In this document: piece after piece, positions 973 through 28,954 of the stretch
Layout of the letters: every line of letters starts with the position of its first letter
Numbering within the stretch: position 1 is the stretch's first letter
Virus record (IMG/VR): IMGVR_UViG_3300002053_000034
Coordinates: 566 to 64,565 of that record
Length of the DNA: 64,000 nt
DNA from: a virus
Taxonomy: Duplodnaviria; Caudoviricetes
Reading direction: 5' to 3' (one strand)
Made by a program: the position numbers and the translations under genes
Notes under the pieces: model-generated
Databases searched by the model: none
Told to the model about the DNA's origin: nothing
What the model saw: only the letters and a program-made list of their open reading frames with translations

Positions 973-986
973 TTATTGACTCCTCC

Positions 987-1394: not shown

Positions 1395-1396
1395 GT

Positions 1397-1819: not shown

Positions 1820-1828
1820 AATTACTCC

Positions 1829-2554: not shown

Positions 2555-2567
2555 TTTTTATCCTCCT

Positions 2568-2765: not shown

Positions 2766-2777
2766 ATTTAGCCCTCC

Positions 2778-3020: not shown

Positions 3021-3027
3021 ATCCTCC

Positions 3028-3351: not shown

Positions 3352-3367
3352 TTATACCACGTCTCCT

Positions 3368-3979: not shown

Positions 3980-3980
3980 A

Positions 3981-4391
3981 TTATCCTCCCTCTTGTTCTC
4001 TATTATCTGCTATCTCTGTATAATAAGTCGCAAATGCGGGGCCGCCTTGCGCCACACTCGCATGATCATGCACCGTAATCCCTTCTAAAACCGCGTAAAA
4101 AGTCATGTCATAAATTCCGGTCGAATTATATTGAATTATTTGTTGACCACTTTTCTTATGTTTGTAATAAACACATCGGTTTCCCGGTGGATTTCCTTCA
4201 AAATCTCCGAGTTCAGGCCGTAATAAAGTAAACCCATTTAAATGTTTAAATCCTCCCTCAGCTTCTGCTTCTGGAGGATCAATAGCTGGTAGATAGGGAG
4301 CTGGGGCGCATATCTTTATCGTGTCTCCTACTCCTATAGTAAACTCCACTATATTTTCACTATCTATATCAATATTTCCAACTAGAGCCAT
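3981..4391 (-). CDS. putative tail spike/tip protein with C-terminal HxH motif
   Basis: VHDHAS near the C-terminus; follows the hub-like genes. Confidence 0.4.
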   Translation of the reverse strand: MALVGNIDIDSENIVEFTIGVGDTIKICAPAPYLPAIDPPEAEAEGGFKHLNGFTLLRPELGDFEGNPPGNRCVYYKHKKSGQQIIQYNSTGIYDMTFYAVLEGITVHDHASVAQGGPAFATYYTEIADNREQEGG

Positions 4392-4396
4392 ACTTA

Positions 4397-5002
4397 TTAG
4401 TCCTCCGTAGTGTTAACTTTAGTTATTTCCAGCGCGCTCGAGGCCTTCGGTTCTTCTTGCTGACCTAAAGGGTGAATGCCTTTAAATGCATCCGGAGTAA
4501 CTTCCAGAGGAACAGTTACTATATCTGTAGCGGCTTTCGGCTCATAATCTATGATTCTATCTCTAAATTTCTCTCTTGCTGTACTCGCCGGTTTAACTAT
4601 ACCTGTAACAACTCCCCATCGCTCGGGCGGATTAACACCGTCCTTCCATGTTTTTAATCTTCTATCTATATTCTGCCCTTCCAATATCGACAACTTATCC
4701 CTGCCGGATATATTAAGCATTACTTTAGATACATCGGTTCGTATCGGGTTTATTGTAGATCTCTCTATCAAACCAGTAAAAATGGGCTTTTCTTCCCCCT
4801 CTAAGCCAGCTCTAATAGTAACGACAGCATCAGTTACAGTTCTTAGATCTGAATAGAGTATTTTCACACTAGCATTAAAGTTAGCAGACATTTGAGTCCT
4901 AGCTCTATTAACAGTAAATGATACCACATTAGGAGTTGTTATATCACCTATTCCTGCTATACTTATAATAGCCCTTATTTTTTGTTTCTTTATTGTTGCC
5001 AT
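4397..5002 (-). CDS. baseplate-hub-like tail protein (gp27/GpD N-terminal-like)
   Basis: Pattern VVSFTVNR...IFTGLIE...LNISGRD typical of hub N-terminal barrels; post-TMP position. Confidence 0.5.
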   Translation of the reverse strand: MATIKKQKIRAIISIAGIGDITTPNVVSFTVNRARTQMSANFNASVKILYSDLRTVTDAVVTIRAGLEGEEKPIFTGLIERSTINPIRTDVSKVMLNISGRDKLSILEGQNIDRRLKTWKDGVNPPERWGVVTGIVKPASTAREKFRDRIIDYEPKAATDIVTVPLEVTPDAFKGIHPLGQQEEPKASSALEITKVNTTED

Positions 5003-5004
5003 TA

Positions 5005-7218: not shown

Positions 7219-7220
7219 TA

Positions 7221-10200
7221 TTATCCTCTAAGATCCAATCTACTAATATTAGACAAAATTATTACGCGTTGATCTTCCAATTCTCTATTCAAATTACTAA
7301 TACTTAATTCCAAGCTGGTGATTCTAGATCTTATAGGTGTAATATCCATGGATTTCAAATCACTGATAGATTCATTGATTGTGGCATTTACATAAGATCT
7401 ATCCTCAACGAAATCGGTGGATCTTTGTGTCTCTAAATAAGCCATTTCCAATTGTTCTTTAGCTATCCTCAATTCTCTTTCTAATCCTTCCATCTCGGAA
7501 GCTTTAGTCTCTACCATTTTTATCTCTTCAGAATTGGTTACAGTTTGCTCTTCCAGCCTGTCTAATTTTTCAGTAGTAGACTCAATAAACTGGTCTATCT
7601 TACTTATACCAGCTGCACCAACACTAAATCCCTCTAACACTCCTTCTAAATTACTTGTATCAATTTTAAGTTCCGGTAATTGATCCTCTGTAGGTATATT
7701 GAAGTTAATAGTAGCGTCTTCTAATTTTCTAACTACAGCTTCCCCAAATTTTTCGGCAGCTGATTCTATTCCTTGAAGTACTCTAGATGGGCTAACTGCG
7801 CCTCCTGCTTGGTAGTGCCTTTTAACCAAACCACCTATATTATATTGAGCCGGTATAATCGCTTCTCCCCTGTGTACCATAGCCATCTGATCAACAGGAA
7901 CATATGGAGTACCTTGTTGATATTTATAGATTCTTCCGCCGGAACCTCTTCCTTCCATAATAGCTCTATCTATTTCTTTTATCCTTTTAAGTTCCTCAGA
8001 TTCTGCGGAAGGCTTTCTTCTAAATAACCCCTTAATGAACTCAATCATTTTTTCTAGTGTAGGATCTCCGAAGTTAATCTGCTCAGCTATAGTTTTTCCG
8101 CCATCTTGGTAATAGGGAATCAGTCCACCCAATGGGTATTTACGGAAAATTCGCCCTCCTCCTCTTAAGCCTTCCCCAAAAAATATTCCTACGTCCGCTG
8201 CACTTTTGAATTGACGACGGTACGCATTTTCTGCCTCACCAAATTTATGTCTGAAAGATTCAAACATAGGATGATTAGCTAATTTGGCCCTTGTAGGAGT
8301 TTTGCCTAAAGTTTCTAGTGCAGCATCTGACTCTTTTTGTAATCTTGCGCGTTGTTGTAATAATTTCGCTACAGTTCGTCTTTCTAATGGGAGTCGGGAA
8401 ACTGGCTTTTCTAAAGCTGTTGCGTAAGCTTCCATCGGATTAAGCATACCGCCTGATCTAGGAAATATTCTCTCAGATATCTTTCCTTTCCTTACTAGTC
8501 CAAGAGCAAATTCAATATCCTTAAGTGTGTCTACATGCTGTTTTAATAAAGGATCTTCTACCCCAATTTTTTTAGCAAATGCCGCCAAAACGCGCAACTC
8601 ATAATCCGCATTATGTTTAACTTCATGCCTAATATTTTTAGCCAATTCAGCCATCGAATCATCCATAGTACTCAATCTTAATATATTTTTTATCTGTTTT
8701 GGATCCGGTACCCTAGCGCCTGGTATAAATTGGCCAACAGAATATCTTACTGCATCCGACCCTATCGTTTGCTTTGAAAAAGGCTTTCTAGAAAAAATTA
8801 TATCTCCGATTCGGCGAGATGTCACGGGATGTAACTTAGTACCTGCTGCTAGCTGTGATAATTGTAATTTAGCCTTTCTGAGATCAGCTACACTCATAAA
8901 TCTTTGTGCAGTTTTTCCTTTTCCGATGGTAGATATCAACTCATCAAAATAAAAATTATACTCCTTCATGGTAGGAAATCTTCGTGACAATTTATCTACA
9001 TGTTGGCGCAACTCTCCAATCCCTATATCAGGTCTAATTGCTGTACCTTCTTCTAAAATTCTCCTAATCGTTAAAGGAGATTCTGTCAAATCAGCTATGG
9101 CTGGGGCCGCCTTAGAAATCTTACCACTCGGCCGCAAATAATTGGCCAAAGACTTAGTAGCCTCTTTACTGACTAGTTTATCGAATCGTTTAGTTGCACT
9201 AGGCCCCCGTCTTAATACAGACTCCACAGAATCTTTGTATAAAGTCGATGTAAACCTCTTAAGTGCCAGTCTCTCAGCGCTAGCAGGCCCTAATCCGATT
9301 AAATAATCAGCTATTTTAGCGGTTTGATTTAAAAGATACTCTGATTTCTGTCCTTCGGTCATGCCAATAGTAGTGCCATGGAATGGTATAAGTGCTTCTC
9401 CTATATCTTCATGAATTTGATCCAAAGAAAAATACTTGCTGCCAACTTTGAATTCTCCCCGAGGCTTTCTTATCTCACCTGGGTCTTTATATTTTAATAT
9501 ATTGTATATTATTGGATCCCTTTTAGCTAACATTTCTTCATAAGCTTCAATAGTAGGGCCTCCATTAACATATCTATAAGGTATCTTACCACCCATACCC
9601 TTACCAAATAGTAAGTCAAGCTCCTCTTTAGATTTACCGAAGATTATCTCTCCTTGGGCCCTTAGAGCTCTCATTCTCTGCTCTCTGGTAGGCTCATATC
9701 CAAGCTCTCTTTCAACTTCCCTCACTATATCAGCGGGATCTCTTCTTCCACTGGGTAATGTACCAGTAGTATTCATATAATCAAGAGTTTGTTTACCTAA
9801 TTTATTCGCTGATGATGCTCTAATTATATATTCGCCTGGACTAGCTAATATCGGCACTTTATCTTCTCTAGGGCCACCAGGACCAGTTATGGTTCCTCCA
9901 GTCTGAGCTTCTCCCCTCACACCAGCTACGAAACTCTCTGCAGTAGCTATAGCTCTCTTCCTACGCTCCTCTCTTAAGAACCCAGGTACCAATCTTTCAG
10001 TCAGCCCTCGGGTATTAGTTTCGATACTGCGCAAAATGGCATTAGATTCTTCTATAGCACCCACAACTGGAGCTTGTTCCCCTAGAGCAAGTTCTCTTAT
10101 TACTCGTTGAGGATCAAATCGTTCGGCTATTCCTTCTGGCAACTCTACTCTTAATTCTTTCAACTTTTCAAACAATGCATCAAAATCGATTCCTCGACGT

Positions 10201-16200: not shown

Positions 16201-19200
16201 ATCTTGAATTGTTTTGCAAACTGTGCACCAAAATCACCAAATACATTAGTAAACCCTCTTATCCTATCTATTATGCCTGTTACTAATGTCTGTCCCTTAG
16301 CTATTATAGCAAATAATCCAGCGAAGGCTACTGCAGCAATCTTTATACTATTAGGTATATTAGCTAAAGTTTCTAATATGGTTCTCAAACCGGTTAACAA
16401 CCCTTTAGCTACCGGTAGTGCGAATCTTCCAAACTGGACCTGTAACTCAGCGAGAGCTCCCCTGACCTGCTGCAACTTCTTAGCGTATGTATCCATCACT
16501 ATCTGATTACGCCGTTCAGCAGCGCCTTTCGAGTTCAAACTATCATTAAGAGTTGTAAGAACATCATTCCAATGATCCATTAAAACAATCAAACTATTAA
16601 AATGCCTTCGACCACCAATAGCTGTAGCTATACTTAATCTCTGGGCATTAGTTAGATCAGTCCACACTACTGCCAAATCTTGAAATATATCAAAAGCACT
16701 TCTAAGTTCGCCAGTTTCGGCTATAACAGGTATTCCAATCTTAGCGAGCTCCTTAGGGCCTTTCTCAGCTTGTATACGTCTAAATATAAATCGCAAAGAT
16801 GTACCAATTTCCTTACCAGTTTGACGTGTAGTCTCACCAATTCCTGTTACAATGGCATTGAACTCGTCAAACGTGACTCCGGAAGTCTTAGCCACTGCGG
16901 CAGCTTTCTTTAAAGCATTAGCTAAATCGCCCGATGTAATAGCATGCCTAGCTTCAACCTCAGTCCACGCATCTAAGAATCTTACTGTGGATTCTCCTTC
17001 CTTTGCATATACTCTAGTAGCAGCAGTAATAGCCTCGGTAGCATCAGTAGCGGTCAAAGTAGTGGTATTTGCGGCCAGCATAGAAGTTCTAGTTCTATCA
17101 ATAACTTCAGCTTGCGCCAAACCTTGCTGCGCAAATACTCTCATAGCATCAATTACTTGTCGAATAGGTATACCAAACTGTTTCGCAAAATCTAATGCTT
17201 GATCAGTCAATAGTTGGAAATCGGTTTGTAATGGGCTCATAACCTGGCGTAATATTGCTATACCAGATTCCACATCCGCAATAGTATTGACCATGCCCTG
17301 CAAAGCATTTATAAATCCATAAACGGATCTACTAGCCAATCCCCATCGTATAACCCTACCAAAAGCTTGCCCTAATCCTCGTCTAGATTGAAAAGATTTT
17401 ATTAAATCTTCCGTCCTTTGTGTAAATATCCCTATTTGGTCTCCACTTTTCGAGCTAGTTTCTCCTATCTTTTTAAACTCCTCTGCTAAACTAGACAAAG
17501 TTTGTTTTGTTGCAGGATCTACTATCTTATATCTATAAGTGAAAGCCCGGCCTCTTCCAGGACCACCAGCAGCCTCTGGAGTCTCAAAATATTTTTGTAC
17601 TTGGGCTATATTTCTTCGGTGAAGAAGTTCTTGTGTTTGAGGATCTAAGAACGAAGGTACTCCTGCTAATCCCAGTGGCGAAGCTTCCACTCCTCCAGGA
17701 GCAAACATTGTTTCGATTTGTCTTAATAATTTAATAGTATCTTCTACATTTTTACGAATAGGTTCAGTATAATCTGTTCCTCCGCCGAAAGCTCCGATCT
17801 GCAACCTATTATAAGCCTGCAAAGCCGCCCTTAATTCAGTTATTCCCTTGGTTAATGCAGCGAAATCCCAAGCTTCCAAAGCTTGATCTCCAATTCGCCT
17901 AAATTGGTCAGCATCTTCTAATATAGCTTTAAGATTAGGATCCTCTTTTGCCAATAATCTGAAGGCGGCTTGAACTTTCTGCAACGGACTAGCTATTTGA
18001 TCTAATTGAGTAGGATCTAAATCCCCCACTAATATATCTATAATAGGCTTCAATTCACCACGTAAGGGCGTGGTCTGGGTAACCAGCTCTTCCAATTGAG
18101 CTGGCGTTCTATAAATACCTGTCAACCTTGCTAGTTCTGGATCTACAAATGCAGTTTTTTTACCACTTGGTCCTATCTGTGTGTATATATCACTTAATCT
18201 ACCAAGTGTTCCCCTAATGTTAGCTAAGAATCTCTCAACTGTTTGCTCGTACTCTATAAGCGCTCGCCTACCTGCGGGCGTACCAGCCTCCTTTTCTATT
18301 TCCTCTTTAAGAGCGTCTAATCTCTTTAAGAAGTATTCACTTACAGAGCTTTTATAATGCATCCAAATTCTTCGCATCCCTCCTCTTTTTTCCGGAGGAA
18401 GTTGAGTTATGGCATCACTGATCTGTCCAGTAATATCAGCAACTGGACCTTTTTCAGCTGCCTCGCTTAAAAGTGAGGCTATTTCGGGTCCAAATTTTTG
18501 TATCTCCTCATCACTAGCTAATCTATGTACACGCAGCGCTGCTTCATACAAGGCTCTCAAATTTTTATGGAGAGCTTCAGGAGTATCGGGGTCTATTCTT
18601 TCTATATCCGGCATTCGTAGTCTAGCAAACCCAGTTTCAGCAGCACCTGTTCTTCTAGCTTCATTCAATTTCTGGTACAATTGATAGATTTCTCTATAAG
18701 ACTCTTCGCTAGCTCCTATACGCTGTATAGCGGCTCGAATATTATTAACTAAATCTTCAAGAGCACCTGCAAGAAGCGTATCCCCTCTTTCTCTAGCAGC
18801 TAATATACCTTCAAGGGCCTCGTCCAAAGTTTGAATTAACTTATATATATCTGGAACTTCTGGCTTTATACCTCTTTCTATTCTAGCGAGAATTTCCTGA
18901 ATGCGTTTTCTAAGTTCCTCATCATCAAACCCATCGCCCGGGCCTCCTCCAGCGCCGCCAGGGGGCGGTGGTGGTGGGGGCGGAGCGGCAGCTCCAGCAC
19001 CAGCCGCAAACATCAATCTAAGTGGCCTTTCTGCGACTCCAGGTCCTCCTAAAGATTGATATATACCTAGATATTCCCTACTTATTTTATCGAATAAACG
19101 ATCCTGCTCTTCCGTTAGTCTATCTATTATCTCTTTAGATGATCTCTGCACTTCTCCAATAGGGCGTGTAGGCAATTTTCTTAGAAATTCTTCCGGGCCA

Positions 19201-22200
19201 AGTTTTTCTAATTCTTTGGAAACATAATCATATATCTTAGGCACATCCGCAAATAATTCTTTGGGTATAACCTGACCAGATTGTATCAAAGCTAATAATT
19301 TAGTTACTCTGGTTCTGCCTTCCTGTATAATAGCTAAGTCTCTTTTGAATCTTGTAGGATCAAATTCACCAATAGGGATTGTAACTTCTCTCTTAGGATC
19401 AAAAGTGCTAACTACGACTAACTCTCCTACGGCATCCTCTACTCCACTCAAATATATGTTAACCTGACTAATATACTCCTCTAATCGCCTAATAACATTC
19501 TTTTCTAGTTGTGAGGTAGGTTCCTGAGCTTTAAGTTCATCGAGTTTTTGTTGTATGGTTATATTACGTTCTTGTACTTCATCTGCAATTTCTTCCAGCC
19601 TTTTAAACTGAGCTGTGCTATAAACAGTCTTGACGTCAGCAACTATCTTTCGACCCGCCTCTTCATACAGAACGTCTATATGTCCAGTAATTCTATTTGC
19701 CAAGTCTTCTATGGGCTTTTCTATCTCAGCTGTTGGGTATTTAGCTAAGAATTCTCTTTGTTTACGTCTATGTAGTGCTGTTCCACGTAGACTAGTAGCT
19801 TCAAGCAGAAACTCGGCTCCTTTAGGAGCACCCAACATTTCCTGCAATATACTTTCTAATTGTGTGCCACCACCATAACCTCCTCCAGCATGCACGGCAC
19901 TAGCTCTAAATATTTCGTGCAGAGGCACTTCCCCCGGAGCAGCCGGGCCAGCAGCACGTCCTTCCAAATATTTTAATGCGTCCCGCTTTCTTGCTATAAT
20001 AGACTCATCTATAGCGGTAGTCAACTCGTCCGCTGCCGCAGCTGTAGTTTTCTTTAATTCTTCGCCTGCGGTTGTGGCGGGAACTCTAAAAGTCCTTACA
20101 GCATCACGCAATTCATTAGTACGAGTAGTAGGAAATGTCTGTTTGTGCCAATTCTCGATAGCTTTTGTGTAGTCATCAAATCTCTGTACCGCATCCATTT
20201 GCGCGGTCGCAATTCGAGTTGCTCCCTCTTCAAATTTAACATCTGGAAAAGCTGCTTCCAAATATTTTCTTTGCTCGGGAATAGTTTTTATTATTTCAGT
20301 AACTCTACGCAACTGCTCTACAACACTAGCCTGAAAAGCTATTGCCTCTTGAGCTGCTGTAGCTAGTTCGCTAGCTCTATTTTCCAATTCTTCCGGAACA
20401 ATTTCTTCACCTTTAGTCAAAGCTTCTTTGGTAAGAACGTCCTTTATAACCTCAAAAGGTCTTATACCATACTTTTCTATTGTCTCCCGCCCTATCAGAG
20501 CTTCTTCTTCTGGGACTAGAGGCTTCAATCCAGCCAATTTAGAAATTTCAGCAACTCTACCCCGCACTATTTTTTGGGTCTCTGTTAATTTATTAAAAAA
20601 TTCTTCAAGATTCTCCATCTGCGGGATAGGTCCTAATCGACCACCACCTAAGCCAGTAATCGCTCCAGCCTCTTGGAAGACTTTCACAGCAAGTTTATTA
20701 GCTTCTATAACATCTGTAAACGGCAAAGCAAATTTACCAACTACTTGTTGTGATTCCTTACCCAATTTTTCTAATTCAGATAATTCTCTATAGCGCTGTT
20801 CAATGGCACTAGTAACAAGTAGTCCATGAACACCTCTTCGAGGGCCCCTAGCGGTTTCCGACAAAGCTTGTGATAGTGCGTGAGCTGCTTTTTGCGTATT
20901 CTCAAAATCTCTAGATAGTTTTTCTGCTCCGGCTTCGGGCAACGTCAGTGCGGTCGGTTCAATTTTTATACCTGTCCTAGAAGCAGCAGTGGCTAACGTC
21001 TCCATACTGGTGCGCATCTTATATAGTGGTTGTAGATTAGTCGTTACATGCTTCTGTATTGCGATTCCAGTTTCAGAAGCATATTCCTTAGCTATCTGCT
21101 GGGCTGCGAATCGTTCTACACCGCCAGCAGCTTGTACATCTCTTAGTAAGCGCACTTTTCTCGGACCAGTTGGTAATTCCGCTATCTGTCTTTCTAACTG
21201 TTTCGACAACCCAGCGACCGCTTGTCTCTGTATTTGTCTGCCAAGCTCTTCAAATGTAGCTATTACATCAACATGTTTTATTATGCGTTGTATAATTTCT
21301 TCTCTACTAATCCCTGTAAGTTGACTAATATCTACTTCGGGCTCAAATCTCTGCAGTTCTCGCATTAATTCATCAGTAGAAAATTTACCCAATCTCAATC
21401 TAACTTCATTAGCTATCTGATCGTTAAAATCAAGTAACTCATCCCACTGGTCTTTAGCAGCGAGCATCGCTTCTCTAATAAATTCTGTTCCACCTCGTTT
21501 GCCTATATTAGCTAATATTTGTTGCCCAACTGCTTCAACACCCGCATGTTTTACATCCATCCCCTTTTGGATCACAAACCGCATTATTTCATTTACGCGG
21601 GTAGCAAACTCTTGGACCGGCCTGCCTCCTAAAGCAACACTTTCTTGTGGAAACCTCTGCAAAAATTCTGGAGCAGGTCTAGCTCTTCTGCCTGTTCCAG
21701 CTAATCCTCTCCCAAAACCCGTTTCAAGTTCGGATATTCTAGCTATCCGGCTTATACCTTCCACAGTTTGGCCTGTATGCAATTTATATAACTGCCCGGT
21801 TATAGCATCAGCATAACGTTTTTCCCATAACTGGCGTCTCACTAAATCTTCGCTTAACTTACTTATATTTCTCTCAAGAGCAGTAGTCGTCTCAGTCACT
21901 TCCGGAAGTGCGGTAGGAGCAGCTCCTATTCTCCCTCTGTAAGCAGCCGCGGTAGGCTCATCGACCCCTAATCGAGTAAATACTTCTGGTAATATTTCTC
22001 TCACTACAAAATCTTTAGACCAATCCCCAACCGCCTTTTGCCACTCCTCAGTTCCTGCTTTTAACTGACCAGCACCAGTAGTATAAGTAAATAACGATTC
22101 AAACACTTTGCTCAAATCTAAATTTTTAACTTGTTCTCTTAAGTACGGCTGTGTTAGAAATTCAAATCCTTTTTCGGCTGGATGTTTTTTACCAAAAATA

Positions 22201-25200
22201 ACTGCCATTTCGGCTAGAGTAGCAACATCGGTTTCTTTCACCGCGGTAAACACAGACCTAAACAATGACCTAACTCCAGTAACATCGTCGGCCAAAGCTT
22301 CAAAATGTTTCTTTATTTCTGCTCTTGACTCTTCTAGTTGTCCTGTATGAACAAATAACGCATCACCATCAAAATCTAGTTTCTGCTCTAAATTAGTGAA
22401 TGATGGAGAGGCCGCATTTACTATTTTTAACAGCCTTTCTATAGCTTCCGTCAGATGGCGAGCTTTTTCGGCAGCCATCTCTGTTCCTTCTGCCCAAGCT
22501 CTTTCTCTTCGTTCTAACAGACTTAATGTTTCTTCCGGTAAATACTGCCTTTTAGCTCTAGGAGTTACCCCTATAAACTCACGCAGCGTGTTAACTACTC
22601 GAACAAGGTCGCCTATATCTCGGCGCTCTTCTGGGCGACCAGCTCTAGCAAATCCCGGAGCACCAGGAACAGCTACACCATATTTACCTAGAGACTGTTC
22701 TAATAATCTAGCTCTATGAGGCTGAACACTCAAAGTCCCAGTAAATGGGTATCGTATAGATTCTACAAATGTTTCACTCTGTTTTTGAATAAGGTCTGCT
22801 AAAGTAGTTTCAATCTCATCTTTAATTCCGGTTCTAACCTTTATTTTTGCAGCCATTTCAGGCGGTAGACCTATTTCGCCTTCTTTTAATACAGGTAACC
22901 CTAATGTTCTAGCTTTAGTAACGTATTCAGAATGGGCTTCTGAAAGCTTTTCCAAATCCTCTACTAACATAGGTAATCCCGGGATCTCCAGATCCACTAT
23001 ATATTTACTTCGTAATTCCTCCAAAAGGTCTTTCAGGTCTCTAGTTTTATCAGCTATAGCCGATATAGCTTTGCCAGTAATTGCTGGGGTTACTCTTTGG
23101 AAGAAAACCTCTTCGATTCCTTTTTTCTTACCAAATACACTTTCTCCCAGCTCCCTGAAATAAGCTACTCTGGCTTTACCTAAAGTTTCTTTGCGCTTCT
23201 CTAGAGCTTCTTTTAAGGATTGTTGGATACTAATACCCACCCTATTCGCAAACTCATCTAAATTACCTGCTTCCAGCTCAATATCAAATACAGTCTCTAC
23301 CTTACCACGCTCTTCGGATCTTCTTTTAAATGTTTCTAGCATAGCTTCAAAATCACCACCAAAACGCTGTAATATGTTTTGATAATATGGAGCCTGGAAT
23401 CTCTGTGGTATCTGCCCACCTGTTTCTCTATATGACTTAAGGGCTGCGTTTATTTCATTGATATCCTTACGTAAAGAGGCAGGGTCAGGTCCAATTAAAA
23501 TATCAGCTATTCTACCTACTATTTTACTAAATTGTCCTTGATATTTGCGCTCAAATTCTTCGACTGCTCCTCTTTCAGTAGTAGCCATGCCCTCTTGGTA
23601 AATAGGTGCTACCTCTCTTGTTTCAGACAGAGCCTGTTTAAATCTATTAATAGTCTGCTGCATAAATTCAACGTTTTGTGGGGTGGGCCCAACTTTCTCT
23701 ATCTGTTGAAATCTTTTTATAGTATCAGTCAAACTTTTAGTTAGTTCAGCTCTTATGGTCGTAGCAAATTTTCGTTGAAATTCCTCACTTAAACCTATAC
23801 CGCCCTGCGCAGCGGCTGATGCTATTTCTTCTACCTCTTTAGCGGCATTCACTAAATTATCTAGATATCTAGCAATATTTGTAGGAGCTTGGGCACCAAG
23901 AAGTTCTTCCTGATAGGTTCCCCTCAAGGCAGGTCCAGGAATATATAATTCTTCATAAAATTCCTTAGCGCCCTTCGCAGTGGAAGGTATTCTAAGTTTG
24001 AAAGGGGTAGGGAATTTACCTATATCAAAGATTGTTCCCTTCAATTCTTCTACTGTACCAGTAGCTTTTTCAAACGATGCAACATCTCTTAGACTTACAG
24101 TACGTAATCCTTCGGTTAATGCCTTATTCACATCCTTCATGGCCGGGTCTAACATTTGAAAGGCTCTAAGCAATTCCCACCCTTCTTGAGCAGTTAGAGC
24201 TGTAGACCTAGCCAGTTCTTCCATCATTTTAGAACCTTCGCCAAATACGCCGGCCATTGCAGCAAAAGATTGAAAATCTAATCGAGCCCCTTTCAACCCT
24301 TTTTGAATTTGTTCAGGAGACCATTCTGGGTACAAATGGGGTTCTTCAATAATTTGTAAAAATTTAGGTGCAACAAATGATTGCATTTGTTCCCCAAATT
24401 CATTAACTACATCGGTATAGACAGAAAACTGAGCTTCAAAATCCCTCAACTTTTTAATAGTATCAGGATCTATGTCAGGTTTCTCTAATTTTAACCGACT
24501 AATAACACCATCTAAATCTTTGAATGGTTGGTATCCCAACTCTCGTAAATATTCATTTAATTTTTTTCTAGCTTCTCTTGTTTCAGTTAGAGCACCCCTA
24601 GATATTTCATCACTAAGAGTTGTAGCTCCAGCAGTGGTTCCTATTAGATTATTAACAATACCTTCTAATATTTCGGGCATCAACCCTCTTTTGGCTATAC
24701 CACGAGAGCTGATTCTAGCTTCAATAGGCCTAACTTCAAATAATTGTTCCTCTCCAAAAAGAGCAGCATAACGCTCTCTAATAAAACGTATGGCTTCTGA
24801 TGTCTCCTTAGGTAATTCCTCACCAAAAACCTTTTTAAACGCTTTGGTAGCGTTCTCAAACACTACTTGTTGCTTTTTAGCTTCTTCTTCGGTCACTAAT
24901 CCAAGTGACGCATCCCTAAATAAGTCTATAACAAATTTATTTCCTGAATCTATTAATTGTCTTGTTAAACTTTCTAGGACTTCGCCACCGAATATATCGA
25001 TTTCGTCCGCTTCTTGCGCAGCCCGAGTTTCAATGTTATTAAATATTTCAATCAATAATTGGCCCACGTTTTTAGGCAGTCTAGCGACACCCAATCCTGG
25101 CCCTGGTGCTACACCAGCTTTAAACCCTTGCTGAATAAACCTACCAACATCCTCTAACGAGGTGATTTCTTTAGGAAGTTCCCCATATCTTGGAGTAACC

Positions 25201-28200
25201 GATACCCCTTTGGTGCCGAACCTAGTAGATAATTTTCTTCCGAAATAATTTAAGAAAGTTTCAGTCAATTTAGCTGTTTGTACTTCAATAGTTTGTCCTC
25301 GGTGCTCTCTAATCAAATTTTCAACTTCTTTAGATATCTCAGCTATATCTGCTCTACCTCTGTATCTTTGTGGGACACCCAATATCTCTTGAAATTGATC
25401 AGTTACCTCTGACAGAACTCTCTTAAATTCTTCTTCGCTTCGAGCTCTTAATCTAGCAGCTCTAGGCGTAATTTGCTGCACTCCGGGCTCTATAGCGGTT
25501 ATTCTTTTAGCTTCTTCTAAAGTTTCAGCCGGCTTAACCAATCTACCAGTTATTTGGGTGAAAGCTTTAGCCAAGCGACCTGATATGACTATCTGGTCCT
25601 CAAATGTCTGAGCAGTATTTCTTAGTTCAGTTAAAACATTAAGTCCAGTTCGAGCCTGTCCATATCTACCAGCTTCCATAATTCTCTGTTCTCTAGCACT
25701 CAAAAGAGCCGGAGCTTCAAATTGACCTCCACCAGGAAGGCCGCCAGCTAAAGCATTCGACACATATGAAAGCTGTCTCTGTATAGAACTGAACTCCCTA
25801 AAAGGAGCAGCTGCTCTAATATCCGCCAAACTAGCCCCAATAGCAGTTTTATCAAGGGCCTTTAAATTAGTTACCATATCTTCATTGAATTGTTTCAATT
25901 TGGAGCTAGCTGCATCACTTAAATCCAAAGATGTGGCTAATGGCCTCCCCAAATATGGTTTGCCTGCGAACAACCCTTCTTGTAACTTTCCGGCACGCTC
26001 GGTTAAATCTTTCAACAAAAGATTGACAGCTACTATGTGCTGCTTTTGCTCTTCGGGTCTAAAACGCCCTTCCATTGCTTTAGTAAGAATCTTTAAGGAT
26101 TGTTCATCATATAGTCGGCGTTTCGGTCTACCTGGCTCAATTAAAGGTTGAAGTCCTAGTAGATCATTTATTGTGCGGGAAACTTCCCGCATATTGCGAT
26201 CAAACCTTACGATATTTGCAGCTTGTTTTTCTAAATAAGGGACCTTCCCAGCTTGCAACATTTTATCCAATATATCATAAAAGTTCTCAAAAGATAGCTC
26301 ATCTAATGCTCTCGCTGCATCTAGAGCACTCACTTTAAGTTCATCAGCTTTCTTTAATAATTCATCTAAAGTTTGGGTAGAACCTGCGAATATCCTAGCC
26401 TGCTCTTCAGTAAATTCACCGCGTTCAAGTCCTCTTAAAGCTATAGCCCGCTTATACCCAGTAGCTACTTCAGCTCTACCACCAAGCTCTATTACTTTTT
26501 TGACCAAAGTAGCGGCTAATTTTTCAGCTTCCGCTTCAGCTACAGTACCAGCAGTGGGGCGCAAAGGTGCTTGAGCTACCTGGCGCATTAACCGCTCAAC
26601 CTCTATAGTGGCTCCTCCTAAATCTCTTAGTTCCTGAGCTAATTTTTCTAAACCGGTAGTTACTGTTACAAAATTAGCTAGCGCTCGCTCAGCCCCATAT
26701 TTGGTAGGAATAGATACTCCTCCCTCCGGCCCTATTCTAGCCGCTGGGACAGCTAATCTTTTTATAAAATCCTGCATTAATTGCCGCTGAGCTTTAGCTT
26801 CTAATGCCACGCCCTTAAACAGATCTGTCAGCTCAGGACGCCTAGCTATCTCGCCTACAGTAGTTGTCTGTTGTTTTATCGCCTTAAATAAGTCTTCTAC
26901 TTGACGACCCATGCTTCTAGCCATCTCGGCCGTTAAACTGCCTACTTCCTTATAGACCGCTTCAGCCATAACTTCAGGACTACGAGCCACACCTAATTCA
27001 CGTCTCACAAAAGCCCTTTTAAATGTATCAATTAATTCATTAGCTGTAGCTTCTGGGGATGCAAATTCTCTAAACTCAGCTGCCAGCGCTTGTCTTAATC
27101 CTCGTACATCCACTATCTTCAATTCCCACTCAGCTTGACCCGGCGCAAGCTGAAATGCTTTGCCCGCCTCATCTTTCAGAATTTCGGCGCCAGAACTTAA
27201 TCCTTTCTCTAAAGATTTAATTATATTATTCTGCAACTTGTCTAAAGATTTGGCTAAATCGCCTAACAAAGCGGCTGTTTTTTCACTTCTAGCTGCCCCT
27301 ACAGGACCTGCTATAGCAAAAGGCTCAGCGACTGGCTGAGGTCTAACTACTTGAGGCCTAAATATGTTAGCTTGTATAGTTGATTTTATCTTAGCTAAGT
27401 CATCTATCTCAAGAGTGGCTTTATGAAAAGACTGGCCGGCTTTACGCATATATTCTTCCGTCTCTGCCATCGTTTCTGATAACAAGTCGGATCCAGCAGC
27501 CATTTTGTCCATCTTTTGAGCAGCAAACTTCATGCGTTTGGCAGCATCACTAGTAGCTCGCTCAACGGTAGCCGATATATTCGATAATGTGTGTGACAAA
27601 TCAGACTGGGCAGCCATCAATTCTTTTATACTACCATCTAACGCTCTCAAAAGGGTGATAGTTAGCTCCACATCGTAAGAAGCGTCATGCAAACTACCTG
27701 TAAGATTCTTAGTTTCTACACCCGCCAATTTGAAGTCTTTTTCAAATGATTCCAATGCATAAGGTTGCCGCCTCGTAGGTGTGCTTAATCTCTGGGGAAA
27801 TTTCTCTCTAGCCAAGCGTAGAGTGTCTATAAATTTGTCTGTTTCAGCTTCTATTTTAATTCCCGCTCTTTGAAAATGCTGTTCCAAAACGCCGATATCA
27901 AACTGAGCTATGTTATGCCCTATAACGGCTTCAGCATCTTTTAATACATCAGCTACTTTTTTCATAGCTTCAGTAGCCTCGATACCCTCTTTTTTCAATT
28001 TTTCGAAAGGTATCGGATCAGCTTTTCCGATATTACCTATAAGTCGTTTATATTGAGCTTCTGTTTCAACTCCTCTAGGAGGCCTAACGAATACTTGGCC
28101 ACGCTCTCCCTTGCCGGCTAATATCTGCTGCAATGTACCTTTCTGGTAAGCTATCTGGCTCACAAATTCAGCGGCCACTTCTTTGCCGATTCGCTTAGCT

Positions 28201-28892
28201 TCGGAAGTTTCAATATCTAAGGCTACCACCATCTTGTCTTTTAATTCTCTCTTTATCTTTTCAAACTCTGTTCCCATATCTTTAAGAGCTTTACCAAAGA
28301 GCTTTATATCTCTGTCCAACTCCGGATTCCTAATCCTTCTACCACCAGCAGTTGGGGAAGCTCCTACAGATTTAGACAGATCCTGCACAGACCTATTAAG
28401 ATCATTAATAGATCGCGTTTGTTTATCAATCAGTTGCTGAAGCGCTCTCTCTATATTCTTTAAAACCGTTTCTCTACCGGTTTTATAAACCTCGGACCGC
28501 TCTATGCGCTTGTAAACATTTACCAGACCTCTAATAGCATCTACTAACTCTCGATCACGAGGATCCCTTGCCTCTCTAGCCACCTCTCTACCAGCTGACA
28601 CAACCTTCTTGATAGCGTCTGGTACATCCTTTAAGTTCCTTAATTGTTGTAGAGTAGTTTCTAACTTAGCCACAGATTTTTGCAAAGCATCCAGTCTTCT
28701 AGTATTCAAATCGATGGCCGCCACATTAACTCCACCAGCCTGGGTTGAAGCAGACTTCTCCAACACTCGTTCCAAATTTTGGATTCGGCGAGTTAAAGTG
28801 ACAATCTGAGTAGCTAAGTCTTTTATAGGTTTCTCAGCTTGTGTATTCTGTATTTGTTCTAGTTGGATTTTATAAGTATTGACTGGCGGCAA
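7221..28892 (-). CDS. giant tape-measure polyprotein (7,223 aa): DEDDh exonuclease + two-barrel RNA polymerase (beta and beta' motifs) + PD-(D/E)XK nuclease + TP901-type tape-measure domain + zincin
   Basis: TTG start with AGGAGG SD; canonical TMP position after tube and chaperones; TP901-type core around aa 3840-4170 (DAMRVFAQQG...LANALKKAAAVAKTSGVTFDEFNAIVTGIGETTRQTGKEIGTSLRFIFRRI); TMP C-terminal motifs GPGGPREDKVPILASPGEYII and AMVHRGEAIIP; DFDGD at aa 2173-2177. Confidence 0.92.
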   Translation of the reverse strand: MPPVNTYKIQLEQIQNTQAEKPIKDLATQIVTLTRRIQNLERVLEKSASTQAGGVNVAAIDLNTRRLDALQKSVAKLETTLQQLRNLKDVPDAIKKVVSAGREVAREARDPRDRELVDAIRGLVNVYKRIERSEVYKTGRETVLKNIERALQQLIDKQTRSINDLNRSVQDLSKSVGASPTAGGRRIRNPELDRDIKLFGKALKDMGTEFEKIKRELKDKMVVALDIETSEAKRIGKEVAAEFVSQIAYQKGTLQQILAGKGERGQVFVRPPRGVETEAQYKRLIGNIGKADPIPFEKLKKEGIEATEAMKKVADVLKDAEAVIGHNIAQFDIGVLEQHFQRAGIKIEAETDKFIDTLRLAREKFPQRLSTPTRRQPYALESFEKDFKLAGVETKNLTGSLHDASYDVELTITLLRALDGSIKELMAAQSDLSHTLSNISATVERATSDAAKRMKFAAQKMDKMAAGSDLLSETMAETEEYMRKAGQSFHKATLEIDDLAKIKSTIQANIFRPQVVRPQPVAEPFAIAGPVGAARSEKTAALLGDLAKSLDKLQNNIIKSLEKGLSSGAEILKDEAGKAFQLAPGQAEWELKIVDVRGLRQALAAEFREFASPEATANELIDTFKRAFVRRELGVARSPEVMAEAVYKEVGSLTAEMARSMGRQVEDLFKAIKQQTTTVGEIARRPELTDLFKGVALEAKAQRQLMQDFIKRLAVPAARIGPEGGVSIPTKYGAERALANFVTVTTGLEKLAQELRDLGGATIEVERLMRQVAQAPLRPTAGTVAEAEAEKLAATLVKKVIELGGRAEVATGYKRAIALRGLERGEFTEEQARIFAGSTQTLDELLKKADELKVSALDAARALDELSFENFYDILDKMLQAGKVPYLEKQAANIVRFDRNMREVSRTINDLLGLQPLIEPGRPKRRLYDEQSLKILTKAMEGRFRPEEQKQHIVAVNLLLKDLTERAGKLQEGLFAGKPYLGRPLATSLDLSDAASSKLKQFNEDMVTNLKALDKTAIGASLADIRAAAPFREFSSIQRQLSYVSNALAGGLPGGGQFEAPALLSAREQRIMEAGRYGQARTGLNVLTELRNTAQTFEDQIVISGRLAKAFTQITGRLVKPAETLEEAKRITAIEPGVQQITPRAARLRARSEEEFKRVLSEVTDQFQEILGVPQRYRGRADIAEISKEVENLIREHRGQTIEVQTAKLTETFLNYFGRKLSTRFGTKGVSVTPRYGELPKEITSLEDVGRFIQQGFKAGVAPGPGLGVARLPKNVGQLLIEIFNNIETRAAQEADEIDIFGGEVLESLTRQLIDSGNKFVIDLFRDASLGLVTEEEAKKQQVVFENATKAFKKVFGEELPKETSEAIRFIRERYAALFGEEQLFEVRPIEARISSRGIAKRGLMPEILEGIVNNLIGTTAGATTLSDEISRGALTETREARKKLNEYLRELGYQPFKDLDGVISRLKLEKPDIDPDTIKKLRDFEAQFSVYTDVVNEFGEQMQSFVAPKFLQIIEEPHLYPEWSPEQIQKGLKGARLDFQSFAAMAGVFGEGSKMMEELARSTALTAQEGWELLRAFQMLDPAMKDVNKALTEGLRTVSLRDVASFEKATGTVEELKGTIFDIGKFPTPFKLRIPSTAKGAKEFYEELYIPGPALRGTYQEELLGAQAPTNIARYLDNLVNAAKEVEEIASAAAQGGIGLSEEFQRKFATTIRAELTKSLTDTIKRFQQIEKVGPTPQNVEFMQQTINRFKQALSETREVAPIYQEGMATTERGAVEEFERKYQGQFSKIVGRIADILIGPDPASLRKDINEINAALKSYRETGGQIPQRFQAPYYQNILQRFGGDFEAMLETFKRRSEERGKVETVFDIELEAGNLDEFANRVGISIQQSLKEALEKRKETLGKARVAYFRELGESVFGKKKGIEEVFFQRVTPAITGKAISAIADKTRDLKDLLEELRSKYIVDLEIPGLPMLVEDLEKLSEAHSEYVTKARTLGLPVLKEGEIGLPPEMAAKIKVRTGIKDEIETTLADLIQKQSETFVESIRYPFTGTLSVQPHRARLLEQSLGKYGVAVPGAPGFARAGRPEERRDIGDLVRVVNTLREFIGVTPRAKRQYLPEETLSLLERRERAWAEGTEMAAEKARHLTEAIERLLKIVNAASPSFTNLEQKLDFDGDALFVHTGQLEESRAEIKKHFEALADDVTGVRSLFRSVFTAVKETDVATLAEMAVIFGKKHPAEKGFEFLTQPYLREQVKNLDLSKVFESLFTYTTGAGQLKAGTEEWQKAVGDWSKDFVVREILPEVFTRLGVDEPTAAAYRGRIGAAPTALPEVTETTTALERNISKLSEDLVRRQLWEKRYADAITGQLYKLHTGQTVEGISRIARISELETGFGRGLAGTGRRARPAPEFLQRFPQESVALGGRPVQEFATRVNEIMRFVIQKGMDVKHAGVEAVGQQILANIGKRGGTEFIREAMLAAKDQWDELLDFNDQIANEVRLRLGKFSTDELMRELQRFEPEVDISQLTGISREEIIQRIIKHVDVIATFEELGRQIQRQAVAGLSKQLERQIAELPTGPRKVRLLRDVQAAGGVERFAAQQIAKEYASETGIAIQKHVTTNLQPLYKMRTSMETLATAASRTGIKIEPTALTLPEAGAEKLSRDFENTQKAAHALSQALSETARGPRRGVHGLLVTSAIEQRYRELSELEKLGKESQQVVGKFALPFTDVIEANKLAVKVFQEAGAITGLGGGRLGPIPQMENLEEFFNKLTETQKIVRGRVAEISKLAGLKPLVPEEEALIGRETIEKYGIRPFEVIKDVLTKEALTKGEEIVPEELENRASELATAAQEAIAFQASVVEQLRRVTEIIKTIPEQRKYLEAAFPDVKFEEGATRIATAQMDAVQRFDDYTKAIENWHKQTFPTTRTNELRDAVRTFRVPATTAGEELKKTTAAAADELTTAIDESIIARKRDALKYLEGRAAGPAAPGEVPLHEIFRASAVHAGGGYGGGTQLESILQEMLGAPKGAEFLLEATSLRGTALHRRKQREFLAKYPTAEIEKPIEDLANRITGHIDVLYEEAGRKIVADVKTVYSTAQFKRLEEIADEVQERNITIQQKLDELKAQEPTSQLEKNVIRRLEEYISQVNIYLSGVEDAVGELVVVSTFDPKREVTIPIGEFDPTRFKRDLAIIQEGRTRVTKLLALIQSGQVIPKELFADVPKIYDYVSKELEKLGPEEFLRKLPTRPIGEVQRSSKEIIDRLTEEQDRLFDKISREYLGIYQSLGGPGVAERPLRLMFAAGAGAAAPPPPPPPPGGAGGGPGDGFDDEELRKRIQEILARIERGIKPEVPDIYKLIQTLDEALEGILAARERGDTLLAGALEDLVNNIRAAIQRIGASEESYREIYQLYQKLNEARRTGAAETGFARLRMPDIERIDPDTPEALHKNLRALYEAALRVHRLASDEEIQKFGPEIASLLSEAAEKGPVADITGQISDAITQLPPEKRGGMRRIWMHYKSSVSEYFLKRLDALKEEIEKEAGTPAGRRALIEYEQTVERFLANIRGTLGRLSDIYTQIGPSGKKTAFVDPELARLTGIYRTPAQLEELVTQTTPLRGELKPIIDILVGDLDPTQLDQIASPLQKVQAAFRLLAKEDPNLKAILEDADQFRRIGDQALEAWDFAALTKGITELRAALQAYNRLQIGAFGGGTDYTEPIRKNVEDTIKLLRQIETMFAPGGVEASPLGLAGVPSFLDPQTQELLHRRNIAQVQKYFETPEAAGGPGRGRAFTYRYKIVDPATKQTLSSLAEEFKKIGETSSKSGDQIGIFTQRTEDLIKSFQSRRGLGQAFGRVIRWGLASRSVYGFINALQGMVNTIADVESGIAILRQVMSPLQTDFQLLTDQALDFAKQFGIPIRQVIDAMRVFAQQGLAQAEVIDRTRTSMLAANTTTLTATDATEAITAATRVYAKEGESTVRFLDAWTEVEARHAITSGDLANALKKAAAVAKTSGVTFDEFNAIVTGIGETTRQTGKEIGTSLRFIFRRIQAEKGPKELAKIGIPVIAETGELRSAFDIFQDLAVVWTDLTNAQRLSIATAIGGRRHFNSLIVLMDHWNDVLTTLNDSLNSKGAAERRNQIVMDTYAKKLQQVRGALAELQVQFGRFALPVAKGLLTGLRTILETLANIPNSIKIAAVAFAGLFAIIAKGQTLVTGIIDRIRGFTNVFGDFGAQFAKQFKIGIFEIFGKLPRALDNIDTTGLSTITEVGKGIQDFESVLGKAGYAIAQFGRGWNSVMSEIAYTGTATTETLSKAFGKLGGGLATLGLRTAVRSPVLGGIITTLATGSKQAEKGLAKLAELFGIPAEALARWSQENASFVKSIGPLAGSIAALIPISGKTGDALKRLALSADDYEKSLSGLRRLRSSELADINSLATSYDRLQGSIDAANKARDPEAMERAIRREEYVSPVLAAGRAYDQSRDLGNQLAAVNLSLIDSFDKFGNAVVKPTANLKKYFTVMREAKIRAIAETEVKALEKFAEELTNAGSASAKFRSELRKFVKEIPGIGPVIAKQIKVSPAQELREAVSDVNKILAARENFPLSTAFDELFKEYNQRLKDARERFRGFYSDFRRILGGLETRGLGAAQIRGLLDREDLQPAFELMVEFEGRLKRLRDQGRINWKDILGIEILKRIEPDVSFDYAAELTKELFREAGILQRTKKAFVGDIVLFSDEIDTQFDIAGRQGILKYRDGLGIFVEAIDRELRTVKEIPFESVRRFVESIFPATKIADQLTENLDILREQLVGAAAGIVAIGDKEFRREFGLGARFFEQIPTETLIQTPIGYNLPGRGGPGGIGRVPFQANLLGIGFRDIIREYLVKPEEELKQFVEEARRRLEADKGFTKGLEEEITRFATIIKNNQVVAQFASIYVDLNKSLSESNRVLKENISVEQARNEALRETAGLLRDIPEAFTDLNLGIRDFFELTAQQRQLVVERARPPEQRTFTRLRGEIVAEELRRQTLADQLEQVLRARTQVGIIAEQARATGIVVPREDLQSITESVIKGISPGEREQIKLQESIKENTSNTVESLHDMLAALGDPKGQAVTLRNAEKLGQSLATGIDLLKSPRTRDRFRGVLGTTEISENIKRGFDNLIKLRNLAEKRGNNETVRSIDTIITEQSRELVGAVGVRRARRIVEGEIPTLPSPQRFIREALTLREPISYLPGQFNFEQLISRAFGEYGIREVIQELEKAAGPTPEELKRGEIIRAYRTAPRPRFGYEPGLAPPDIRYQRLTGSSQFRNVTKLLNEQNKISVASSKTLSQLFAAYGGFNEIFRQAAKREQRGYDVQVKQLREQQKGVVVRFRAGEIGQEEFRTQMRDIARQISEAVRAREEAGRTAQQRATREAVGLIASATTTFARSAGFSEKALNNLGKSAAASVIAWQAWSALTGEELPEAVKRATNALNEYAATGGSPASKLRVRAAAKAVEKLEKNQKDLLNAEEKDKIRRAKDLKLSEEDLRRGNEALKAVKEGDLKKLNESEKLSNINRDQLTTLLAIEENTRKSSEAAAEGKDATEGAAKDTAQEMEKPIESMTQSLRGKLDEIKQERLMGGGDVAARLKDLFAAATVVTAAGYLGEKTRLPAELGEARRRAERLNESFAKLAQAFPKEVEAAIKQLRERREAALARGGATLTEQRTRLLDVARAEQEFLDRLSEMAESIGISLDDVSTIIESKKDKLYVIGELSSIISKSIDNLIRDVSVSINNRRIEQQFRLGLTGELRGLPTFEEFQIGKLPHELSPTERLLKEGGTTYRQLYDSFNILQDIRERLIGALQENAQRLVASQVGFTVGTMGAKRTIEDTTRELEKEGLLGLTKEDPTKIFTLMRKEQRKIPLFREVARRSQEQFLSLPEDMQKAQRVGHTEALAAINRQIRESRKFIEEYTKVLSVVDVGKALKEQREKLARFREIGKQITEQWRKGLIDPDIYAKTIPKINKSVIEAREAISGFEELGPPSDFRKAIADLIDRTAIASEQLRIEAENHEHLARAAQEVNVLMSDLAQVFEVGLNIERVIGEFEQLKFNLRVDDLHREFANLADDILSRLRGGTHPLAPQFPTFAAVQAGVPPEQLFRMTRAQQRIAEIQFTQGRQPTIAELQQIRFEEHIGELRLKQTREDEKLRQQFQAVVSLDRQIQMERLRAVNIEDPRVRESLLSSYSEFRGQLRAALEEASQIVREVEPGILERRGIDFDALFEKLKELRVELPEGIAERFDPQRVIRELALGEQAPVVGAIEESNAILRSIETNTRGLTERLVPGFLREERRKRAIATAESFVAGVRGEAQTGGTITGPGGPREDKVPILASPGEYIIRASSANKLGKQTLDYMNTTGTLPSGRRDPADIVREVERELGYEPTREQRMRALRAQGEIIFGKSKEELDLLFGKGMGGKIPYRYVNGGPTIEAYEEMLAKRDPIIYNILKYKDPGEIRKPRGEFKVGSKYFSLDQIHEDIGEALIPFHGTTIGMTEGQKSEYLLNQTAKIADYLIGLGPASAERLALKRFTSTLYKDSVESVLRRGPSATKRFDKLVSKEATKSLANYLRPSGKISKAAPAIADLTESPLTIRRILEEGTAIRPDIGIGELRQHVDKLSRRFPTMKEYNFYFDELISTIGKGKTAQRFMSVADLRKAKLQLSQLAAGTKLHPVTSRRIGDIIFSRKPFSKQTIGSDAVRYSVGQFIPGARVPDPKQIKNILRLSTMDDSMAELAKNIRHEVKHNADYELRVLAAFAKKIGVEDPLLKQHVDTLKDIEFALGLVRKGKISERIFPRSGGMLNPMEAYATALEKPVSRLPLERRTVAKLLQQRARLQKESDAALETLGKTPTRAKLANHPMFESFRHKFGEAENAYRRQFKSAADVGIFFGEGLRGGGRIFRKYPLGGLIPYYQDGGKTIAEQINFGDPTLEKMIEFIKGLFRRKPSAESEELKRIKEIDRAIMEGRGSGGRIYKYQQGTPYVPVDQMAMVHRGEAIIPAQYNIGGLVKRHYQAGGAVSPSRVLQGIESAAEKFGEAVVRKLEDATINFNIPTEDQLPELKIDTSNLEGVLEGFSVGAAGISKIDQFIESTTEKLDRLEEQTVTNSEEIKMVETKASEMEGLERELRIAKEQLEMAYLETQRSTDFVEDRSYVNATINESISDLKSMDITPIRSRITSLELSISNLNRELEDQRVIILSNISRLDLRG

Positions 28893-28954
28893 GTGTCAGC
28901 CCTCCTATAGCGTATTAATAGCTAAAATTATTATAGAAGACCTGGCCTTGCCTT

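Follow-up and report, generated by a model that had tools for sequence, protein, structure and literature searches.

The system closest in organization to the locus considered here is that of Thermus phage P23-45 (also P74-26, G20c and TSP4), in which gp96, a 5,002-amino-acid (aa) tape measure protein with DFDGD at residues 779–783, carries an N-terminal two-barrel virion RNA polymerase (RNAP) that is found in virions within full-length gp96, transcribes the pre-early genes and was proposed by the authors to work at the tape-measure pore while DNA enters (Chaban et al. 2024, PMC10770324). The same source states that two-barrel RNAP families have little in common beyond the DxDxD region. Polyvalent proteins (Iyer et al. 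2017, PMC5512222) and the virion RNAPs N4 gp50 and crAss-like gp66 are likewise large multi-enzyme virion proteins injected with the DNA, but they are internal to the head or particle and are not tape measures. We report here that a 7,223-aa open reading frame (ORF), the largest in a 64,000-nucleotide stretch of DNA from an uncultured phage (Duplodnaviria; Caudoviricetes; positions 566 to 64,565 of IMG/VR record IMGVR_UViG_3300002053_000034; hereafter the window, meaning the whole stretch that was analysed), encodes a DEDDh 3'-5' exonuclease domain near the N-terminus of a predicted tail tape measure protein, and we weigh what such an enzyme may do.

Tape measure proteins are present in few copies per virion and lie in the tail lumen; in siphophages their C-terminus is at the tip and their N-terminus points towards the head. 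Other tape measure proteins carry muralytic or peptidase inserts, the ruler being the vehicle for an entry enzyme; those inserts act on the cell wall and lie in C-terminal, tip-proximal positions, whereas here a nucleic-acid enzyme occupies an N-terminal, DNA-proximal one. As in P23-45, the giant tape measure ORF seems to sit in the tail gene slot and has its cargo N-terminal to the ruler; in both, DFDGD is conserved among relatives (at aa 779 in gp96 and at aa 2173 here) and the pore through which DNA enters is the presumed site of cargo delivery. The two proteins differ in that gp96 has a metallopeptidase domain (PMC10770324), of which a Pfam scan of the giant ORF found none, in that a Cas4-like nuclease motif set is present here, and in that gp96 has no sequence similarity detectable by tblastn or hhalign to the polymerase-like region of the present protein.

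Our literature search turned up no tape measure protein with a reported exonuclease: the word 'exonuclease' is absent from the text of PMC10770324, whose supplementary RNAP family lists might include the present family, and the available text of PMC5512222 does not mention 'tape measure' and has 'exonuclease' only within a reference title. A polymerase fused to a tape measure is already known, and the nuclease component of such a cargo is not described in the literature searched. An earlier note on this DNA, made from the sequence alone, had called the place of the exonuclease upstream of a virion RNAP unusual; with a virion RNAP fused to a tape measure already published (PMC10770324), that arrangement is not as unusual as claimed, although the published protein lacks the exonuclease.

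The DEDDh exonuclease domain

Residues ~218–420 of the giant protein are a DnaQ/epsilon-type DEDDh 3'-5' exonuclease domain, much as the earlier note had proposed for positions 27630–28230, which correspond to aa ~221–421. The domain is matched by Pfam RNase_T, the family that the note had expected (PF00929; 37.3 bits, gathering score 24, E 5.2e-9), in an alignment limited to profile positions 70–163 of 164, that is, to the Exo II–III part, and by the CRISPR-associated DEDDh profile of PADLOC, the best PADLOC match, over profile positions 1–138 of 139 (E 5.2e-14). Two PHROG families annotated 'DNA polymerase exonuclease subunit' match it at 2e-18 and 1.4e-14, and a phmmer search of PDB sequences gave a weak epsilon match (E 0.016) whose alignment runs from the D-x-E through Exo II. 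A chance match of the Exo motifs was rejected on the strength of the RNase_T, DEDDh and best PHROG values. We also rejected Pol III epsilon proper, since the scores of the NCBIfam equivalogs lie far below their cut-offs (42.3 bits against 236, 40 against 222.7 and 37.5 against 196).

The residue numbering given in the earlier note (D226, E228, H402 and D407) is exact, since the strings it quoted, VVALDIETSE, IGHNIAQFD, FIDTLRLAR and LHDASYDV, start at residues 222, 324, 354 and 401. Three of these strings are indeed Exo motifs; FIDTLRLAR is not a canonical one, although its D356 is invariant, and the acid of Exo II is D332. Exo III is of the His type (H-x4-D) and not of the Tyr type, and DnaQ/epsilon-type enzymes share the five catalytic residues, their order and an Exo III of the form HxAxxD. 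Unlike Pol III epsilon, the domain is not beside a DNA polymerase but is embedded in tape-measure-like helices.

Close relatives of the domain are nearly all giant tape measure proteins. With aa 1–800 as query among proteins of similar length, 19 full-length homologues (6,902–7,646 aa, 33–50% identity) were recovered, and a HMMER scan of 1.84 billion representatives with a 280-aa exonuclease domain query gave 33 matches at E <= 1e-3. The best 22 of these belong to the tape measure family, 14 being at least 6,595 aa long and eight being shorter pieces, four of which (P0024, P0027, P0031 and P0035) carry the same downstream polymerase-type motifs; the remaining 11 have unrelated architectures and are matched over the Exo II–III half only. 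Megablast and tblastn searches of 50,697 phage records with the exonuclease region gave no match, and neither did a viral contig search with the exonuclease as single query. The source labels of the homologues are marine sediment metagenomes and bins named after unrelated bacteria and archaea, and the contigs that carry relatives are as long as ~150 kb.

Conservation was assessed on all strong domain matches after removal of P0001, a fragment of the window itself, and of six duplicates, which left 36 distinct domains with 28–63% identity to the query. Just seven positions are invariant in all 36 (D226, E228, G325, N327, F331, D332 and D356), and H402 and D407 are kept in each of the 35 sequences that reach Exo III, the 36th ending at a contig edge; the acidic residues are conserved in homologues, which the earlier note had made a test of its reading. 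This pattern is that expected from purifying selection on an active site. As judged from these residues, the domain is very probably catalytically active, with a two-metal site formed by D226, E228, D332 and D407 and with H402 as general base.

An RNase H-like alpha/beta DEDD fold, the other test set beforehand, is predicted for aa ~218–420. The AF2 model of aa 201–480, built on an 18-sequence alignment, has a mean predicted local distance difference test score (pLDDT) of 84.3 and a predicted template modelling score of 0.78. Against the PDB, Foldseek gave 209 matches at E <= 1e-3, and all those listed are DEDD exonucleases, with RNase T at the top (probability 1.00, E 3.5e-7) and a Pol III epsilon target at a TM score of 0.76. 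In VIA the best neighbours reach Z 17–18: Exo I (Z 17.9, 3.2 Å over 183 residues), the N-terminal exonuclease of DinG (Z 17.6) and Pol III epsilon (Z 17.3, 2.7 Å over 172 of 176 residues, 23% identity) are followed by the Cas2-associated DnaQ domain (Z 16.9), a PolC-type exonuclease domain (Z 16.4), and then TREX1, TREX2 and Exo X. Taken together, DnaQ/Pol III epsilon (2gui, 2ido and 1j53), Exo I, DinG, Cas2-DnaQ and PolC have the same fold at Z 16–18, with 2.7–3.2 Å over 165–183 residues and 18–25% identity. All of the best 50 VIA rows by Z-score are DNA-acting exonucleases.

Predicted enzyme cargo and ruler of the giant protein

The N-terminal ~3,800 aa are the predicted cargo of the protein, in which the exonuclease is accompanied by two-barrel RNAP-like motifs and by a Cas4-like motif set (Table 1). 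What defines two-barrel RNAPs is a DxDxD signature (DFDGDE) in one barrel together with a pair of basic residues in the second (PMC4996933, PMC7824862), and the two-lysine feature of the second barrel, DPBB-B, is described in PMC4996933. Here a GRKxxTRFGTKGV pattern, at aa 1218 of the present protein, recurs in 31 of 31 family sequences of at least 2,500 aa, as a motif only, without profile or fold support, and D[FY]DGD is present in every family sequence long enough to reach that site; the two motifs lie ~950 aa apart and are conserved throughout the family. Pfam RNA_pol_Rpb1_2 weakly matches aa 2172–2195, below its cut-off (E 0.0069). Considering these motifs and the P23-45 precedent, we think it likely that the giant ORF's N-terminal portion includes a two-barrel RNA polymerase. 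The virion RNAP that the earlier note placed downstream of the exonuclease therefore stands at the level of the two motifs and the sub-threshold Pfam match, and not at that of fold prediction or of searches with aa 1551–2700, which are considered below.

Among two-barrel enzymes there is also a DNA polymerase, PolD, whose working partner is a separate exonuclease for proofreading (PMC4996933), and since the nearest relatives of the exonuclease are proofreading subunits, the cargo might be read as an injected DNA polymerase–exonuclease pair. We consider this extremely improbable. PolD retains two of the three aspartates (PMC4996933) and is disfavoured because the present family keeps the full D-x-D-x-D; moreover, the only characterized tape-measure-fused two-barrel enzyme is an RNAP (PMC10770324), and the exonuclease and polymerase-like domains are far apart in sequence.

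The third element of the cargo is a candidate PD-(D/E)xK nuclease of Cas4/RecB-like type, whose GHxD, DxK and QxxxY residues are invariant in 20 full-length sequences. All profile matches of this region (aa ~3036–3147) are weak: Cas4 TIGR00372 at E 0.0024 (17.7 bits against a cut-off of 65), PADLOC DruK at 3.2e-4 and Cas4 at 6.3e-4, and phrog_1706, 'CRISPR/Cas system associated', at 2e-5. On these motifs the cargo may hold both a 3'-5' exonuclease and a PD-(D/E)xK nuclease, an enzyme type that is often 5'-3'.

Table 1. Positions in the window of the giant ORF, its start signal and the domains and motifs of its product.
Feature	Residues	Position	Strand	Basis or conservation
Giant ORF, tail tape measure protein (predicted) with N-terminal enzyme cargo	7,223 aa	7221..28892	minus	ORF list
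Shine-Dalgarno AGGAGG, 8 nt ahead of TTG start (28890–28892)		28901..28906	minus	Read from sequence
N-terminal helical, tape-measure-like part ahead of exonuclease	~217 aa	28242..28892	minus	phrog_167
DEDDh (DnaQ-like) 3'-5' exonuclease domain	~218–420	27633..28241	minus	Pfam RNase_T, PADLOC DEDDh, AF2, Foldseek, VIA
Exo I motif, D226-I-E228	226–228	28209..28217	minus	D226 and E228 invariant, 36/36
Exo II motif, G325-H-N-I-A-Q-F-D332	325–332	27897..27920	minus	G325, N327, F331 and D332 invariant, 36/36
D356 of conserved D-T motif	356	27825..27827	minus	Invariant, 36/36
Exo III motif, H402-D-A-S-Y-D407 (HxAxxD, 'h' type)	402–407	27672..27689	minus	H and D kept, 35/35
Candidate second-barrel motif GRKLSTRFGTKGV, two lysines 8 residues apart	1218–1230	25203..25241	minus	31/31 sequences
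DFDGDALFVH, candidate catalytic Mg-binding motif of two-barrel RNA polymerase	2173–2182	22347..22376	minus	Family alignment
Cas4/RecB-like PD-(D/E)xK nuclease motif set (GHxD, DxK, QxxxY), candidate	~3036–3147	19452..19787	minus	Motifs and weak profile matches
PhageMin_Tail domain, tape measure core	3897–4094	16611..17204	minus	Pfam PF10145
Candidate membrane segment	4179–4208	16269..16358	minus	Kyte-Doolittle, 19-residue window, score >1.6

That the product is a tail tape measure protein is indicated by several matches of its sequence. PhageMin_Tail scores 92.4 bits in the Pfam scan (cut-off 33.2, E 4.4e-26) and its stretch is the best conserved of the whole protein (73–78% mean identity); tape measure families make up 13 of the 15 PHROG matches of the C-terminal half; and the sole PDB sequence match of the whole protein is the tape measure gp16 chain 8zdo (E 1.7e-4). 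The tape measure family phrog_167 matches aa 7–678, that is, around the exonuclease. The only strongly hydrophobic segment of the protein follows shortly after the tape measure core. The TTG start is supported by the AGGAGG upstream of it and by the conservation of the N-terminus in homologues, and an assembly chimera was rejected because the same architecture recurs on many independent contigs.

Mean identity is lowest, within the front part of the protein, over aa ~1–217 (24–29%). Across the 20 full-length sequences it is 40–78% at aa ~500–5000, unusually high for a tape measure, which suggests that this part is made of many folded modules, unlike a typical coiled-coil ruler. The most variable part is the C-terminal ~1,400 aa, except for the conserved final ~220 aa; no Pfam family matched in a scan of the last 923 aa, and a glycine-rich GGxIxGPGGPxxDxVPIxASxGE is conserved near the C-terminus in the family consensus. 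Tape measures scale at ~0.15 nm of tail length per residue, at which 7,223 aa would correspond to a tail of ~1 micrometre, or about half of that if aa ~3800–7223 alone count.

The IMG/VR record is 64.5 kb long and rated 23% complete, the window being nearly all of it. All long ORFs of the window are on the minus strand, the GC skew is negative in every 2-kb bin, and a tRNA scan of the window found none. Upstream of the giant ORF, on the same strand, are genes for a terminase large subunit and a major head protein, and these were the only two of 20 neighbouring ORFs identified in a PHROG scan; the lack of a functional match for the other 18 points to a phage lineage of great divergence. Among the ten flanking tail-region ORFs there was no identifiable tail tube, chaperone or hub gene, since these ORFs gave no PHROG function and a single Pfam match below cut-off (DUF2793).

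Another candidate comparator, gp146 of Bacillus phage 0305phi8-36 ('hypothetical tape measure protein', L005:12623-20236), has DIETTGL at aa 1223 and HxAxxD at aa 1685, 460 aa later, but no DxDxD motif. In gp145–147 of that phage there is no DFDGD, no match to the hidden Markov model (HMM) of the family and no exonuclease match by phmmer against the PDB, and they were not confirmed as a comparable set.

A proposed role for the exonuclease at DNA entry

Considering its place in the protein and its relatives, we give about an even chance to the exonuclease being injected and working in cis on 3' ends where the DNA enters, with DNA as its likeliest substrate. On the P23-45 precedent and what is known of tape measures in general, the protein would lie in few copies in the tail lumen with its N-terminus adjoining the leading DNA end. 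At infection it would be expelled, the C-terminal ruler part with aa 4179–4208 forming a conduit through the envelope; the exonuclease would leave the tail last and so come to the cytoplasmic mouth of that conduit, together with the polymerase-like region and the PD-(D/E)xK module, and the N-terminal ~3,800-aa cargo would refold at the cytoplasmic exit. There the enzyme may remove nucleotides from free 3' ends in cis, most likely at that end of the phage genome which enters first, or at nicks or flaps on this genome, as an accessory to the co-delivered transcription enzyme and not as a bulk degrader. DNA is favoured as substrate because the top VIA neighbours are DNA exonucleases, as are the best profile matches, namely epsilon in NCBIfam, the phage family 'DNA polymerase exonuclease subunit' in PHROG and the CRISPR-associated DEDDh of PADLOC, and because a few tethered molecules suit a single-copy substrate such as the entering genome.

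Several results weigh against this reading. DEDDh enzymes are not assignable to DNA or RNA from sequence, and RNase T, which heads the Foldseek list, is an RNA and DNA enzyme. A folded domain of ~200 aa, in three copies, is a tight fit in the tail lumen. A version in which the exonuclease prepares the template is geometrically difficult, since 3'-5' resection exposes a strand along which a polymerase would move outwards. Because the exonuclease lies ~790 aa ahead of the first polymerase motif, physical coupling of the two is conjecture. The polymerase itself was not recovered as a fold: the AF2 model of aa 1551–2700 has a pLDDT of 66.1, with the DFDGD stretch below 50 and the aa 1218 motif outside the modelled piece, and with this model Foldseek gave no match at E <= 1e-3 and a wide VIA search returned helical look-alikes only, with no meaningful RNAP match. 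Alignment of the family against aa 1–1300 of P23-45 gp96 by hhalign gave a probability of 0.18, an ESM Atlas search for the polymerase-like region gave nothing specific, and tblastn of aa 1501–2700 against the 50,697 phage records gave no match. Since the folded piece left out the aa 1218 motif and modelled DFDGD poorly, the polymerase fold is unconfirmed.

The distribution of the domain bears on the same question. For most of the 25 full-length homologues the query had been the exonuclease region itself, which makes their 100% possession of the domain circular, and a separate search was therefore made with the polymerase-like region alone. Among shorter proteins found in this way, six of the seven matches that bear an N-terminus have the exonuclease (P0024, P0059, P0027, P0060, P0031 and P0035), and in IMG/VR, where patterns from the polymerase region alone yielded four loci (L007–L010), each locus carries the three Exo motifs in the frame of both polymerase motifs, at the N-terminus and upstream of them. 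The seventh protein, P0067, is more distantly related, with 31% identity in the polymerase region; it is 2,334 aa long, truncated at the C-terminus, and holds both polymerase motifs, at aa 1350 and aa 2267. Neither the family HMM nor Pfam detects an exonuclease in the 1,350 aa that precede its second-barrel motif; provided that the N-terminus has been called correctly, it would serve as a natural comparator that lacks the exonuclease. P23-45 gp96 likewise has none detectable, there being no RNase_T match in aa 1–1300, no BLASTP similarity and no family HMM match in the whole protein. From these comparisons the exonuclease is stably kept within this clade, although apparently not all relatives have it; gp96 does without it, as P0067 seemingly does, and it is therefore accessory to this type of enzyme and not required.

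Since the cargo pairs the exonuclease with RNAP-like motifs on one polypeptide, in all four of the loci retrieved through the polymerase region, RNA has to be considered as a substrate: the enzyme could trim the 3' ends of nascent or backtracked pre-early transcripts, for proofreading, release or maturation, or remove host RNAs and R-loops at the entry site. RNase T as the top Foldseek match fits this as well. However, the active site of two-barrel RNAPs itself cleaves backtracked RNA, the best 50 VIA rows are without exception DNA exonucleases, the best profile matches are epsilon-like, and the distance to the first polymerase motif speaks against it too; moreover, P23-45 gp96 transcribes without an exonuclease (PMC10770324). 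We therefore regard an RNA-directed accessory role as fairly unlikely. A bolder proposal makes the exonuclease the obligate partner of a tail-injected two-barrel RNAP, either remodelling the first-entering genome end with the Cas4-like nuclease so that a clamp-less virion polymerase could start pre-early transcription, or being the first exonuclease known to proofread in trans, or to trim 3' ends, for a two-barrel RNAP. We hold this to be unlikely; if it were true, the tape measure would deliver a self-contained machine for end processing and transcription.

An enzyme that arrives before any phage gene expression might instead serve counter-defence or host takeover. Its targets would be nucleic acids of the host, or molecules of its defence, that have a free 3' end; examples are signals made of linear oligonucleotides, DNA and RNA related to retrons or CRISPR, and the ends of host DNA. 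In PADLOC the domain is matched best by a CRISPR-associated DEDDh profile, a candidate second nuclease lies in the same cargo, and injected polyvalent proteins with conflict-related enzymes have been described (PMC5512222, PMC7824862), although the available text of PMC5512222 names no such exonuclease and no tape measure. With few molecules per virion, bulk or diffusible targets are improbable; the domain would be tethered to a membrane-spanning ruler; and cyclic signals are not substrates because a DEDDh enzyme needs a free 3' end. We judge such a function distinctly unlikely.

The location of the domain, at the head-proximal end of the ruler (with the orientation of other siphophages) and adjoining the leading DNA end, could also suit a role within the virion. 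At the head–tail junction it would hold on to the packaged genome by its 3' end, or trim that end, and thereby either tether the DNA to the tape measure, which the DNA would then follow into the cell, or finish the end during assembly; that it is flanked by tape-measure-like helices is in agreement with this. Considering that the strict conservation of all five catalytic residues speaks for hydrolysis and not for mere binding, we find a virion-side or non-hydrolytic role very unlikely, and return to the injected, cis-acting nuclease as the reading that we prefer.

Tape measure proteins were long viewed as passive rulers, until P23-45 showed that they can carry a polymerase. The family described here suggests that the ruler can bring a whole nucleic-acid tool kit (an exonuclease, a polymerase-like core and a second nuclease) into the cell before the DNA arrives. 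Few enzymes are known to pass through a phage tail, and a nuclease would then be one more of them. Since the exonuclease domain is small and soluble-looking and has clear catalytic-dead controls, its biochemistry is directly approachable. Should its target be the genome end that enters or the first transcripts, the exonuclease would offer a testable route to a poorly understood matter, the priming of pre-early transcription on DNA that is still translocating.

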